NCBI GenBank assembly: GCA_963555755.3
Contig: OY820905.2
Span: forward strand, 1,376,001 to 1,440,000
DNA: 64,000 nt
Source: Nitrospirales bacterium
GTDB taxonomy: Bacteria; Nitrospirota; Nitrospiria; Nitrospirales; UBA8639
Direction: 5' to 3'
A program made the translations under genes and the position numbers. A model generated the notes under the pieces. The model made no database searches. It worked only from the letters and a program-made list of their open reading frames with translations, and was not told the origin of the DNA. This document shows, piece by piece, positions 1,562 through 5,885 of the stretch (its first letter is position 1; each line of letters starts with the position of its first letter).

Positions 1562-3154
1562 ATGATGACCGATCAAATTATTCTCATTGCTGTTGATTCT
1601 GCCGAGCCATCCCTCGTTGAAAAGTGGGTTGCCGAAGGCAACCTTCCGACCATGGCTTCCCTTATGCAAAAAGGGACTTGGCAATGGTTGCGTTCGGATG
1701 CCGAAATCTCAAGCGGATCCACATGGGTTTCTCTCTTGACAGGAACTTCTCCCGCAAAACATGGCGCCAGTTTTACTCACCGACAATTTAAGTCCGGAAC
1801 TTACCAAATTCGAAAAATTTATGCCGATCAATTTCTTCGCGACCCTTTTTGGTTGCCCCTTTCACAGGCCGGTAAGCGCGTAGCAATTTTTGATTTTCCA
1901 AAATCGTACCCTCTTAAAGAAATCAACGGCATTCAAATCACAGGCTGGGGAACGGAAAGTCACAATTGTAAACCTGGCTCCGTCCCCGCTGAGAAATTTA
2001 GGGAAATCAATCGACGTTTTGGAAAACATCCTCTTGCTGATTGGTATCATGAAAGACCAAAAGATGTGAAAGGCTGGATTGAGCTGACGCAACAAATGAT
2101 AAAAGGGGCTAAACAACGAACGGACATCACCCACTGGCTTTTGGAGAAAGAAAGGTGGGACCTTTTTGCTGTTTGCTTCGCGGAAACTCATTGGGCAGGT
2201 CATTTCTTTTGGCAACTGATGGATGAGGCACACCCACAATATGACCCCGCTATTGCAAAAGATTGCCAAGAGCTTCTTTTAAAGGTGTATCAAGAAGTCG
2301 ACCGCGGCATTGAAAAAATAATCGCCTCTCGACCTGAAGCAACTTTTTTCATTCTCTCCAACACAGGCATGGGTCCCAACTACAGTGCCGTTCATTTAGT
2401 CTCTGATATTTTAGATCGTCTTGGTCTTGGAAATCAGAAAAAAAGGACAAAGAAAGAAAATTTTTCTTTCAAACTCCTTCCTCAAAAAAAGTGGGGATAC
2501 TTTGCTTTCAAAAAAATTGAATCCATTATTTCTATTCGTACGCTAAGTAAGATTCGAAAGCTCTTTCCCCAACGCCTGTGGAATACACTCGGTCGCCGTT
2601 TCTTAGAACTTGGAAATGATTGGAAAGATTGTCTTGCCTTTGCTGTGCCTGATGACTTTTCCGGAGCCATTCGTATTAATGTAAAAGGTCGCGAACCCAA
2701 TGGCCTTGTCGCCCCTGGAGAAGAATATAATCGTCTCTGCGATACGATTATTCAAGAATTTCGTGCTCTTGAAATTCCGGAAACAGGAAAGAAAGCGGTG
2801 GCCGATGTTTTTAAGGTAAGAGATCGTTGTCAGGGAGAAAATGTGGATGAATTACCGGATATTATTGTGATATGGCAAGCAGACGCTTTCATTGAATCCT
2901 TGCGTTCACCAAAAATCGGGACCGTCTCCGGGGAGTTTTTGGATGAGCGAAGCGGCGCCCACCGTGCTTATGGTTTTCTTCTGGCCTGCGGGCCAACCAT
3001 TCGATCCGGTGAAGTGATCAAAGAAGGCAATACCTTGGATATCGTCCCCACCCTCTTTCACATGTTCGGAGAACCCATCTCAAAAGATTGGGATGGAAAG
3101 GTGTTAGGCGATATCTTCGTGAAAAGGAAAAAGGAAAAGAAAAGGGTAGAGTAG
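1562..3154 (+). CDS. alkaline phosphatase superfamily protein (type I phosphodiesterase/nucleotide pyrophosphatase-like)
   Basis: ILIAVDSAE, GNLPTMASL, STWVSLLTGTSPAKHG, SGAHRAYG, LDIVPTL; last codons (VE*) come from the antisense intron end. Confidence 0.85.
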   Translation: MMTDQIILIAVDSAEPSLVEKWVAEGNLPTMASLMQKGTWQWLRSDAEISSGSTWVSLLTGTSPAKHGASFTHRQFKSGTYQIRKIYADQFLRDPFWLPLSQAGKRVAIFDFPKSYPLKEINGIQITGWGTESHNCKPGSVPAEKFREINRRFGKHPLADWYHERPKDVKGWIELTQQMIKGAKQRTDITHWLLEKERWDLFAVCFAETHWAGHFFWQLMDEAHPQYDPAIAKDCQELLLKVYQEVDRGIEKIIASRPEATFFILSNTGMGPNYSAVHLVSDILDRLGLGNQKKRTKKENFSFKLLPQKKWGYFAFKKIESIISIRTLSKIRKLFPQRLWNTLGRRFLELGNDWKDCLAFAVPDDFSGAIRINVKGREPNGLVAPGEEYNRLCDTIIQEFRALEIPETGKKAVADVFKVRDRCQGENVDELPDIIVIWQADAFIESLRSPKIGTVSGEFLDERSGAHRAYGFLLACGPTIRSGEVIKEGNTLDIVPTLFHMFGEPISKDWDGKVLGDIFVKRKKEKKRVE

Positions 3155-3249
3155 AGCACTGGTGCATACATGGAGCTGCTCTCGAACGCTTCGACGCACG
3201 CGTCTACCACGGACCATAGCAGTCAACAATTCCCAGCGCCCCCTCATCA

Positions 3250-5243
3250 GTAGGGTCGAGGACTGGCGCGCCAACGGTAGGGGTCGGTGGCTCCTCCACC
3301 CCTTTCGGAATGGGCCTCAGTCCGACTCCCCTGGTCACGGTTCCAGTCCCCGCCACCTCAAACCCGGCGTGCTGATTTCCAGCACCGGGCTTTCCTGGAT
3401 GCTTCACCTCAAGGGTTATGTGACCTATCAGCCTGGAAGGACTTTCATGCCGACCCGTTGTACCGCACTCGGTAATCTCCATATAAGCCAAGTACCGTGT
3501 AGAGCCAAACCTTACTCCACCTCTTCCAGCCAAAACCTCGACGGTGGCGCACTCGCATCATGTGCCGCCGGACCTTCCGCTCCACCCAATCCTTCACGTA
3601 GGAGAAACACCGACTCGCATGCCCAATCCGGAAGTAGTTCACCCAGCCCCGTACGATCGGATTGATCATGGCGATCATCCGTCCCACCGGCTGGGATTGC
3701 CCGCGTCGGAACACTTCCTTGAGCTTCCGCAGCAACGCGGTGCGCCGCTTCACCTTCGGTATGTACTGCGGGCGCCACACTCCACGCCGCGACCGCACAC
3801 GCCGAAAGTCAAAGCCCAGAAAGCCGAAGCTGCCTCCCTGACTCAGGTCCACGATCCGGCTCTTCGCCTCATTCACCTGAAGGTCTAATTGGGCCAACGC
3901 CTCTCGCAGCTTCCGCTCCGCAACCTGCGCCAGTTGTGCGTGGCGGCGATAGCCATCCACTAACACGACGAGGTCATCCGCAAACCGGACATACTCGAGA
4001 TACGTATACTGGCCCTGCCGGGTTGTCTCCTTCAGCTGCTCCAGCCTCTCATCCACTTCCGTGAGATAGAGGTTGGCCAGCAGCGGGGAAATCACACCCC
4101 CTTGAGGCACCCCACGCGGGCCGGACGCCTTGACGATGAGTTTCACCAGCCGCAGGATCGCGGGATCCTGGATGCGTCGGGCCACCTTCGCCAGCAGCCG
4201 GTCATGCCGCACCGTGTCGAAGAAGGCCGCCAGATCCACATCAATCACTCGCGTCTTGTTCTGCACCATCGCCTGAGCCACCCGGCCAATCGCCTGGTGG
4301 GCTGTCCGTTTCGGTCGATACCCATACGACCCATCACGAAAATCCGCCTCAAAGATCGGTTCCAGCAGGAGCTTGAGCGCTCCCTGTACCACGCGGTCCC
4401 GAATCGCGGGTATCCCTAAGACGCGGACTCGTCCACCGCCTTTCGAAATCTCCACGTGCCGGTTCCGCATCGGTCGGTAGGTCTGCGTGACCAGTTCGTC
4501 CCGTAGTCGTGCAAGAAAGGGCTCCACCCCCGTGGCCTCGATGCCAGCAAACGTCACCCCATCAATGCCGGGGGCTCCGTTGTTTTTCTTGGCCATCGAA
4601 TAGGCCGCGCGTAGCGTCGCCTCTTTGCACACGTGGACGTACAGGCCCCACACCCGCCATCGCTTCTCAGCCTTCGCCTTGACGTAGAGCCGCTGTCGCA
4701 GGTCTTGCAGTGTAATGGACGCCGTTGTCATCTCGTCCCTGCCTCCCATGTTGATCACAGCCTACAGCCAGTAGGGCTCCTTTGCTCCACAGGCATGACC
4801 CTGCTTCCTCGCTCCTACGAGCCCCTCCGCCACCCTCTCGTCTTCGGCTCACTTCCCAGAGAGCTGGTTATAGAGCCGATCTTCCTCCAGGGATTTCTCC
4901 CTGGGACGAGGAGGGCTTCTCCAGTTGCGTCGTCTGTCCTTGCTCCCGTGCTGTCGCTCTCACCCCGCCGGAGTGGCCAGGCGTCTCAGCCTTGGTTCGC
5001 CTGTCCATGCCGTCTTCGTCCTACGGACAGGGACTCGACCTCCGAGGTTTCATACTTTCGAGGCTACCTCTGCGTTCACTTGCGTTACGGCCCGGGAACT
5101 CGCTCACCATCCTCTACGATGGCTTTGTCGATGGGCTTCAGCGTCTCGGTTTCTCTCCACGCTGCCATCCAAGCTACAGGGCTCAGGCTCTTACCCTGGT
5201 GGGCTTGCTTCCCACTGAACAGTCTCGCCTTACCTGGACACAC
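3250..5243 (-). mobile_element. group II intron, RT-encoding inner intron
   Basis: 5' GTGTG at 5243; 3' CCTCGACCCTAC at 3250; own domain V (AAGCCCGGTGCTGGAAATCAGCACGCCGGGTTTG) downstream of the RT stop. Confidence 0.88.
3445..4731 (-). CDS. ltrA: group II intron reverse transcriptase/maturase (no endonuclease domain)
   Basis: GAPGIDG, LGIPAIRDRVVQ, SYGYRP, GVPQGGVISPLLANLYL, RFADD, FGFLGF, GWVNYF. Confidence 0.93.
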   Translation of the reverse strand: MTTASITLQDLRQRLYVKAKAEKRWRVWGLYVHVCKEATLRAAYSMAKKNNGAPGIDGVTFAGIEATGVEPFLARLRDELVTQTYRPMRNRHVEISKGGGRVRVLGIPAIRDRVVQGALKLLLEPIFEADFRDGSYGYRPKRTAHQAIGRVAQAMVQNKTRVIDVDLAAFFDTVRHDRLLAKVARRIQDPAILRLVKLIVKASGPRGVPQGGVISPLLANLYLTEVDERLEQLKETTRQGQYTYLEYVRFADDLVVLVDGYRRHAQLAQVAERKLREALAQLDLQVNEAKSRIVDLSQGGSFGFLGFDFRRVRSRRGVWRPQYIPKVKRRTALLRKLKEVFRRGQSQPVGRMIAMINPIVRGWVNYFRIGHASRCFSYVKDWVERKVRRHMMRVRHRRGFGWKRWSKVWLYTVLGLYGDYRVRYNGSA

Positions 5244-5885
5244 AACCGTGCGTATAGTTTTCCCATACACGGCTTTCCGATGTTCTTCTTCCAGAGGCAT
5301 GCGTCTGTCATTAGCCAATAGCCAAATTCAGACTTGGCCTTCCGAGATAGTTTCCTCTGTAGTGTCCTGATCGTACTTGGGGTTGATAGCGCGATGGCAA
5401 TCCCCGGATCCTCCACTCGTCGAAAACGCGAACAAAGTAGGGTCCCTTCCCTCGGGCCGGGTTGTGTTGTCCCAGGCCCTCCAACGGTACTATGAACCCC
5501 TCCGACTCCCACGACGGCCCCTGACGATTTCGGTATCCCTTATACGTCGGGGTTGCTGGCTCTATCCCAGCACCGTCGCGGGTCTCCCGTCCTGCACGGT
5601 GTCTCTTCCACCACATGCCATCCCTGCTACCCCGGAAGATCCTGAGGGTGGGTGTTCGTTCTACTCCCTCAGACAGCGGCCTTCCCCTTCTGACCACAGG
5701 GTCGGCATCTCCAAATAAGTCACGAGGCTACGTCTAGGTTCGCTTGCGCTACGGCCTGCAGCTTTGCCCATGGGAAACTTCAACCCCTGATTACTCAGAC
5801 GCTGCTTCCCGGTGCTAGAAAGGTGTACGAACAACTCCTTTCGCGGGACTTTAACCCGCTAGACACACCGCCGATGACGGCATGC

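Follow-up and report, generated by a model that had tools for sequence, protein, structure and literature searches.

We analysed a 64,000-nucleotide (nt) stretch of the genome of a Nitrospirales bacterium (hereafter the window; assembly GCA_963555755.3, contig OY820905.2, positions 1,376,001 to 1,440,000) and found that its minus strand carries a twintron, a complete group II intron (positions 5243-3250) precisely nested within another (5885-3146). The inner intron is an intact class F, variety g2 element inserted in the base of domain V (DV), the catalytic helix of its host. It very probably arrived there by retrohoming guided by its exon-binding sites 1 and 2 (EBS1 and EBS2), and the catalytic core and branch point of the host would be restored only after the inner intron has spliced. 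Introns that home into introns are already established; the variant described here is a class F/g2 intron with a homing site in DV. The features on which the argument rests are listed below (RT, reverse transcriptase; ORF, open reading frame; DVI, domain VI; IBS, intron-binding site).

5244..5885, minus strand: outer intron, 5' part, with domains I-IV (ORF deleted) and most of DV; 5' end GCATG (Rfam D1D4-6, 12 family copies)
5690..5695, minus strand: candidate EBS1 of the outer intron, GGUCAG, complementary to the 5' exon end TTGACC at 5891-5886 (pairing read from the sequence)
5244..5274, minus strand: host DV up to the insertion; AGC triad 5274-5272, GGAAAA loop motif 5263-5258, IBS2 5256-5252, IBS1 5249-5244
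3250..5243, minus strand: inner group II intron, 1,994 nt, GTGTG...CCTAC, class F/g2 (Rfam, junction comparison, RT tree)
5051..5055, minus strand: inner EBS2, GUAUG, pairing partner of exon positions -9 to -13 (here 5/5, one wobble; covariation scan)
5023..5028, minus strand: inner EBS1, GUCCGU, pairing partner of exon positions -1 to -6 (here 5/6; covariation)
3445..4731, minus strand: intact RT/maturase ORF, 428 amino acids, YVRFADD, endonuclease domain absent (Pfam RVT_1 and GIIM only)
3361..3391, minus strand: DV of the inner intron itself, 3' strand CCGGGTT, mismatched to its own EBS1 at 3/6 positions (Rfam Intron_gpII, 3277-3394)
3146..3249, minus strand: outer intron, 3' part, with DV base, DVI and the 3' end CTCTAC (junction comparison, refold)
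48092..50065, minus strand: ORF-bearing comparison intron with an empty DV site, junction 48197/48196; same IBS1, weaker IBS2 (4/5, two wobbles)

Results

A complete intron is nested in domain V of an ORF-less intron

Read along the minus strand, the host DV runs up to GCACGGTT, the inner intron follows from GTGTG (5243) to ACCCTAC (3250), and the host resumes with TGATGAGGGG and its DVI, which ends in CTCTAC at 3146. Excision of the inner intron leaves a 17-nt junction, CCCTCATCA joined to AACCGTGC, identical to the corresponding junction of the uninterrupted 48092-50065 intron, and the rejoined outer RNA folds into a canonical DV and DVI. Rfam domain I models matched both introns (D1D4-4 at 5080-5217, RF02003, 112 bits, for the inner; D1D4-6 at 5620-5852, RF02005, 61.8 bits, for the outer), while the DV/VI model (Intron_gpII, RF00029) matched the inner intron only (3277-3394, 42.6 bits). 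A sequence-only reading of this DNA had proposed that an RT-encoding intron lies at the DV base of an ORF-less one, and that its removal restores the DV/DVI junction of the 48-kb intron; coordinates, covariance models, refolding and the 17-nt identity agree with it on both points. The insertion point lies 3' of the strand pairing with the AGC triad; most of the DV helix therefore stays upstream, and the displaced part comprises just the basal pairs and DVI. Since DV is thereby split from DVI, surveys made with a DV/VI model miss such hosts. Missing outer introns have been remarked on (PMC8919778; here and below, published work is cited for what the accessible parts of each report state).

The inner intron has the hallmarks of a group II intron. 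It begins GTGTG and ends CCTAC at the 14 5' and 15 3' junctions of its family, in keeping with the GUGYG and AY consensus, and its RT/maturase ORF lies in domain IV. The RT scored 356 bits against TIGR04416 (cut-off 300), carries FADD in RT5 and grouped with B.th.I3 (g2), apart from the g3 intron Ni.ha.I1, with a Shimodaira-Hasegawa-like approximate likelihood ratio test (SH-aLRT) value of 96 in a quick tree that took in one of ten g2 and two of eight g3 references. It is 49% identical to B.th.I3 and 38% identical to the RTs of the host family. A 6-nt EBS1, a covarying EBS2 and an ectopic site that lacks a DV hairpin (see below) set it apart from the hairpin-targeting class C (IIC) introns, which have a short EBS1 and no EBS2 and insert behind a stem-loop, and insertion in DV rather than in the RT active-site motif sets it apart from the YADD-homing lineage. 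Near-identical copies in the genome point to recent spread.

The outer intron (746 nt) is 94% identical to a sibling at C1:230305 that carries an ORF, of which it has lost about 1.24 kb. Its domain I, its rejoined DV/DVI and its CTAC end are those of a group II intron. The 5' end is atypical: GCATG, not GUGYG, opens all 12 family members, and the family has nonetheless dispersed at precise TGACC sites, (T/C)TGACC preceding every one of the 12 5' ends. The window copy lies in a dispersed repeat, between TGACC and C, and runs antisense to the final codons of a gene of the phosphodiesterase family; no host gene therefore depends on its splicing. Both the outer family and the 48-kb intron family, whose 5' end (GTTCG) is likewise atypical, insert at this TGACC/C point of the repeat (5886-6080 in the window), whose sequence AAAGATTTGACCCC occurs 61 times genome-wide.

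The inner intron has entered DV repeatedly

We located 14 5' junctions of the inner family in this genome. Eleven lie directly behind the DV strand ACGG(A/T)T, two are head-to-tail tandem junctions and one is ectopic. The hosts of the 11 DV copies are class F-like in ten cases and have a different DVI type in one. All seven ORF-less hosts are occupied, as are two of three ORF-bearing siblings. Among 151 genomes of the order searched, a single other one (G148) matched, and all four of its copies lie in DV, with EBS1 GACCGU facing ACGGTT; its junction sequence is that of locus L001, and the two were counted once. The base at +1 varies (T, C, A, G). All 14 copies are co-oriented with the replication fork, as judged by GC skew, but this bias is weak evidence because most hosts are co-oriented too.

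The alleles of inner and outer introns do not travel together. The window twintron and that at C1:2999 differ at 43 of 746 outer positions and at only 3 of 1,994 inner positions; compared with C1:2225398, the outers are identical and the inners differ at 16 positions. Separate homing events would produce this incongruence, and so could gene conversion; movement as a unit does not fit it. EBS1 comes in two alleles, which track the alleles of the host DV: GUCCGU stands behind ACGGAT (6 sites), ACGGAC (the ectopic site) and ACGGTT (the window and C1:2225398), and GACCGU stands behind ACGGTT at three sites. EBS1 and host DV allele are mismatched at two sites, the window being one of them. ACGGAT is native to the hosts because it is present in empty host copies.

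Several rearranged copies accompany these. At C1:2160017-2165998 (L083), three inner introns stand head to tail in a single host DV, the first and last differing at 14 positions, an arrangement that fits re-homing at an already occupied site. One inner copy is split into parts 1.24 Mb apart (C1:9684-11163 and 1250583-1251094), C1:2222683-2223275 holds a 3' twintron fragment, and at C1:943595-943707 the 5' end of an outer intron is fused to an inner DV.

EBS1 and EBS2 read the 3' strand of DV

In the window, EBS1 (GTCCGT, 5028-5023) pairs with the host strand ACGGTT at five of six positions, one of them a G-U wobble. Across 62 rows (4 dropped for a deletion or a short flank), EBS1 and the adjoining exon paired at 92% of positions versus 50% after shuffling (44 distinct pairs; 0/5000 shuffles). 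Within the 15 DV-only pairs the values were 92% versus 78%, and matched variants of DV strand and EBS1 include ACGGAA/UUCCGU, ACGGAT/AUCCGU and GCCGTT/AACGGC. When exon positions were scanned against domain I columns without bias, the same EBS1 block emerged, at the position that the sequence-only reading had given, together with a second block, EBS2, at 5055-5051 (83% versus 48% shuffled; 37 distinct pairs; 0/5000 shuffles). The stem that closes the EBS1 loop covaries as well (93% versus 79%; 15 distinct stems; 1/5000). The shuffles ignore kinship, though many different hexamers are involved. We placed EBS1 by covariation and rejected placement by minimum free energy (MFE) folding, since a plain MFE fold does not expose it. 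Together the loops read the 3' strand of both DV helices; at the empty 48-kb intron, EBS1 would pair at 5/6 and EBS2 at 4/5 positions, the latter with two wobbles.

Strict matches to both loops occur at four sites in the genome, all of them occupied host DVs. A probable third element of the site is GGARAA at -20 to -15, in the DV loop, common to all 12 non-tandem junctions: the pattern GGARAA-N8-ACGGWY has 23 genomic occurrences, and the 12 that are occupied are exactly these junctions. The ectopic site keeps the loop motif and lacks both EBS2 pairing and a DV hairpin. The RT probably reads this GG(A)RAA loop motif as well.

DV homing is widespread but not fixed among relatives

The survey took in the best 80 of 598 confirmed RT relatives. 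Sixty-five 5' ends could be placed, in 64 loci, and none in the other 16 loci; four had too little flank, leaving 61 testable ends. A strict DV test, with a null rate of 150/32,000 positions (0.5%), was passed by 31 of the 61, from 23 genome records and 8 labelled phyla; it superseded an initial loose test with a null of 4.5% and false calls. The ends located elsewhere carry a re-matched EBS1, so that DV homing is the commonest state of the clade and not a fixed one. The proposal that the inner intron targets the catalytic domain of other introns thus holds for 11 of 14 junctions here, 4 of 4 in G148 and 31 of 61 relatives, but not for the clade as a whole. In a 72-row clade (SH-aLRT 96, quick tree), DV-located rows are scattered among retargeted ones, which suggests that DV homing may be old within it.

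Some non-DV relatives are also within introns: L017 and L023 lie in domain I, and L035 lies downstream of another intron's domain I. Two others interrupt a gene that we take to encode an IS630-type transposase. Among 29 non-DV targets, no shared distal motif was found. Five acidobacterial relatives (L015, L017, L023, L035, L064) have switched target to different conserved positions of introns, either a point about 23 nt inside domain I or a domain III-like stretch. Six of 96 plasmid records were examined. Four close ones, from Cupriavidus necator, Paraburkholderia phymatum, Bradyrhizobium japonicum and Caballeronia, have the intron in a DV, and the inner ORFs of the B. japonicum plasmid locus (L086) and of Caballeronia (L087) are intact. 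No 5' end could be located in a fifth record, and in the sixth, the distant Bacillus thuringiensis intron is not in a DV. Natural examples are present in cultured, non-pathogenic strains.

The DV of the invader itself is altered. Own DVs were identified for 26 DV-located copies. The NCGG(T/A)T strand of the Rfam consensus is absent from all 26, and in 25 the EBS1 has at least two mismatches to the copy's own DV (three rows of this comparison are out of register by one base owing to an extra nucleotide). Six of seven basal g2 rows (L052, L065, L069, L076, L077 and B.th.I3) lack this change, which L073 has. The alteration fits self-avoidance, and it also fits drift in an ancestor.

An unrelated insertion sequence also enters DV

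Outside the window, the genome holds four copies of an unclassified 1.86-kb insertion sequence (IS) with 23-bp inverted repeats and a 588-amino-acid protein (its relatives are loci L090-L140):

C1:775533-777391, 1024326-1026938, 1251116-1252974 and 3058591-3060449 (L081, L082), both orientations: IS copies

All four lie in the upper stem-loop of a group II DV. Two keep an 11-bp duplication; the other two have unlike flanks, which suggests recombination between copies that shuffles intron halves. The protein matches an IS1 transposase weakly (25.5 bits, cut-off 100); its nearest atlas clusters are labelled "putative transposase", without Pfam domains, and searches against Pfam and PDB sequences returned weak zinc-finger matches only. 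Of 51 metagenomic relatives, 42 had a locatable end. A DV flank was recognised by pattern (null 3.4%) in 31 of these, two being doubtful by eye; ten lie elsewhere and one was too short. The loose 11-mer target consensus occurs 1,734 times in this genome.

Discussion

How the twintron would form and splice

Known biology of endonuclease-less IIB introns (PMC4424553) suggests the following course. The inner intron would splice from any DV context, its ribonucleoprotein would reverse-splice into single-stranded lagging-template DNA at the replication fork, and the nascent strand would prime cDNA synthesis. DV may be a good landing pad: it is found in every group II intron, it is located in non-essential DNA, and it is renewed whenever the host intron moves. 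The altered DV of the clade would make its members a poor target for themselves. As for the RNA, the same 13 nt form the host catalytic helix and the invader's exon-binding target; the two folds are mutually exclusive and the order of splicing should be forced. Because the insertion also moves the host branch point 2 kb away, inner-first splicing is likely needed. The expectation that the outer intron must wait for the inner to splice is structurally sound, has precedent and is likely: in a Trichodesmium twintron with its inner intron in domain I, the inner was shown to splice first (PMC4649490).

Some observations weigh against this account. EBS1 of the window copy is mismatched at -2 (U/T), and MFE folding buries it in a competing helix, as in 5 of 59 homolog segments. 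The genome has 493 sites that fully pair with both loops when G-U is allowed, only six of them occupied, so pairing by itself does not decide which sites are used. Well-matched ACGGAT hosts stand empty at C1:228423 (opposite to the fork) and C1:775512 (co-oriented). Thirty of the 61 testable relatives are not in a DV, the role of the loop motif at the ectopic site rests on a single event, and gene conversion among 14 near-identical copies could also have shuffled the alleles. On the RNA side, the computed stability of the host DV hairpin is -12.4 kcal/mol (RNA), compared with -4.0 for the EBS1 duplex and -1.0 for the EBS2 duplex; the hairpin that holds IBS1 and IBS2 being the more stable, the inner intron may splice inefficiently. 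Neither a spliced junction nor a lariat was seen when a joint skipping 3250-5243 was sought over 2700-6300 in assembled contigs of two metatranscriptomes and two other runs. One joint, from 3249 to 5257 (X2), was rejected as a splicing product because it carries the letters of an uninterrupted relative.

These RNA-side points lead to an alternative in which homing at the DNA level is the same but the host is crippled: the inner intron would rarely splice from a folded DV, the outer would be a dead end, and the occupied hosts would have spread before they were invaded. The stable hairpin, the mismatched and buried EBS1 of the window copy, the missing spliced joint in the two metatranscriptome assemblies and the occupation of 7/7 ORF-less hosts, with no free copy left, all favour it. 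However, contigs cannot show a rare spliced form to be absent. Moreover, 13 of the 14 copies have no other type of 5' exon, so the inner intron must splice from DV contexts to have spread, and three pairs of identical outers at different sites (0/746 differences) show very recent mobility of the outer intron itself. We regard a crippled host as rather unlikely.

Two further alternatives deny that DV is sought out at all or that it was entered repeatedly. If the intron had a short sequence preference and inserted widely, copies in introns might simply persist as harmless; the ectopic copy, the half or so of the relatives that lie elsewhere and the 493 loosely matching sites could be read in this way. 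Such survivor bias is nevertheless very improbable, because one exact phosphodiester bond is used in 23 genomes, and introns and ISs offer far more harmless DNA than that single bond. Both loops match the DV strand and change with host DV variants, and the re-matched EBS1 of relatives elsewhere marks them as retargeted, not random. Still less credible is a single or twofold origin of the twintron followed by copying of the composite, or its assembly in error from repeats. Fourteen near-identical 2-kb repeats can mislead assemblers, and some pairs are near-identical in both parts (C1:2999 and 2585433, with 0 and 1 differences). Yet inner and outer alleles are incongruent, the hosts belong to different classes, the site recurs in complete plasmids of cultured strains, and contigs of other runs span both the 5' junction (X11 record 4, X12 record 14, X8 record 25) and the 3' junction (X11 record 1, X12 record 9). 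This last alternative is already largely refuted. Retrohoming of an intact inner intron into DV thus accounts best for the data.

Relation to known systems

Site-specific homing is known to form twintrons at the YADD codons (PMC2504315), in domain IV between start codons (PMC2882425) and within domain I (PMC4649490), and nests of introns in Methanosarcina are also described in PMC4424553. The YADD-homing introns (M.a.I5, UA.I3, P.l.I2 and a B. thuringiensis israelensis intron; PMC2504315) are a close analogy: bacterial or archaeal and likewise endonuclease-less, they use a conserved motif of other retroelements as a renewable target and form twintrons. They target RT active-site codons in domain IV, whereas the inner intron of the window targets the catalytic DV of the ribozyme, with the result that ORF-less hosts are invaded too and DV is separated from the branch point. 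We rejected the identification of the YADD-homing "B.th.I3" (PMC2504315) with the g2 intron B.th.I3 (PMC3552965), because replicons and loci differ.

In Thermosynechococcus elongatus TeI3/TeI4 (PMC2882425), near-identical inners in diverged outers were also read as repeated independent homing, and ORF-less introns likewise arose by ORF deletion. The TeI3/TeI4 inner, however, is ORF-less, a close relative of its host, and lies between two start codons in domain IV; ours bears an RT that is 38% identical to those of its host family and enters the DV of several classes. Trichodesmium Tr.e.I7/I8 (PMC4649490) differs in having its inner intron in domain I, at a single locus within a protein gene, with no lineage-wide site. 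Class F g2 introns such as B.th.I3 of pBMB67 (PMC3552965) resemble ours in FADD, the lack of a D/En (DNA-binding, endonuclease) region, a protein of about 430 amino acids and a length of 1.97-2.0 kb; B.th.I3 itself is not in a DV and has an unaltered DV of its own. In the accessible text of that report and its Table S2, class F g2 loci are transposase, hypothetical-gene or non-coding ones, and DV goes unmentioned. EcKTE56.groEL (PMC12584367) re-homes at an occupied site to give head-to-tail copies, comparable to the triple at C1:2160017-2165998; unlike our inner intron it is a IIB1 intron that targets the groEL stop codon, with an EBS3 U wobbling with the first G. In the literature searched (subscription papers and bioRxiv supplements lay outside its scope), we found no account of an intron or an IS that homes into DV.

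Taken together, the two invaders hint at a broader picture, which we put forward tentatively as possible though on balance doubtful: DV may be a contested landing pad for an RNA-programmed intron clade and an unrelated IS family, with EBS1 changes following the host DV variants (ACGGAT, ACGGAA, CCGGGT, GCAGTT) and the invader having rewritten its own catalytic helix to escape itself. If so, a coevolutionary chase over a ribozyme active site could explain part of the sequence diversity of DV. Such a target, offered by any group II intron with or without an ORF, would let one lineage ride on all the others, and the convergent IS suggests that DV targeting evolved twice, by different chemistry. 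Specialists may find it surprising that a lineage aims at the catalytic core and that an IS has converged on it; the conflict of folds lends itself to a direct test.

Additional observations

Host introns with the DV strand ACGGAT or ACGGAA (C1:228423, C1:775512; L033, L041, L054, L059, L021, L034, L036, L048) have a G/A mismatch in place of the usual G-U wobble opposite the triad G, yet they have dispersed recently. A third intron family sits within host-intron RT genes, near RT residue ~284 (C1 about 6500-8300, 799550-801330 and 3056270-3058070). In G148, contig C15 has 64 Intron_gpII matches, mostly of 71-77 nt, in near-identical groups with some facing pairs. The window itself holds a dense cluster of ISs (6301-9009, 31200-32822, 44567-46314, 46635-47834 and 50405-53228), with a DruA/DDE_Tnp_1_assoc fusion ORF, repeated IS4-type copies, a transposase with helix-turn-helix (HTH) and integrase-core domains, and two copies of a 540-amino-acid DDE transposase.

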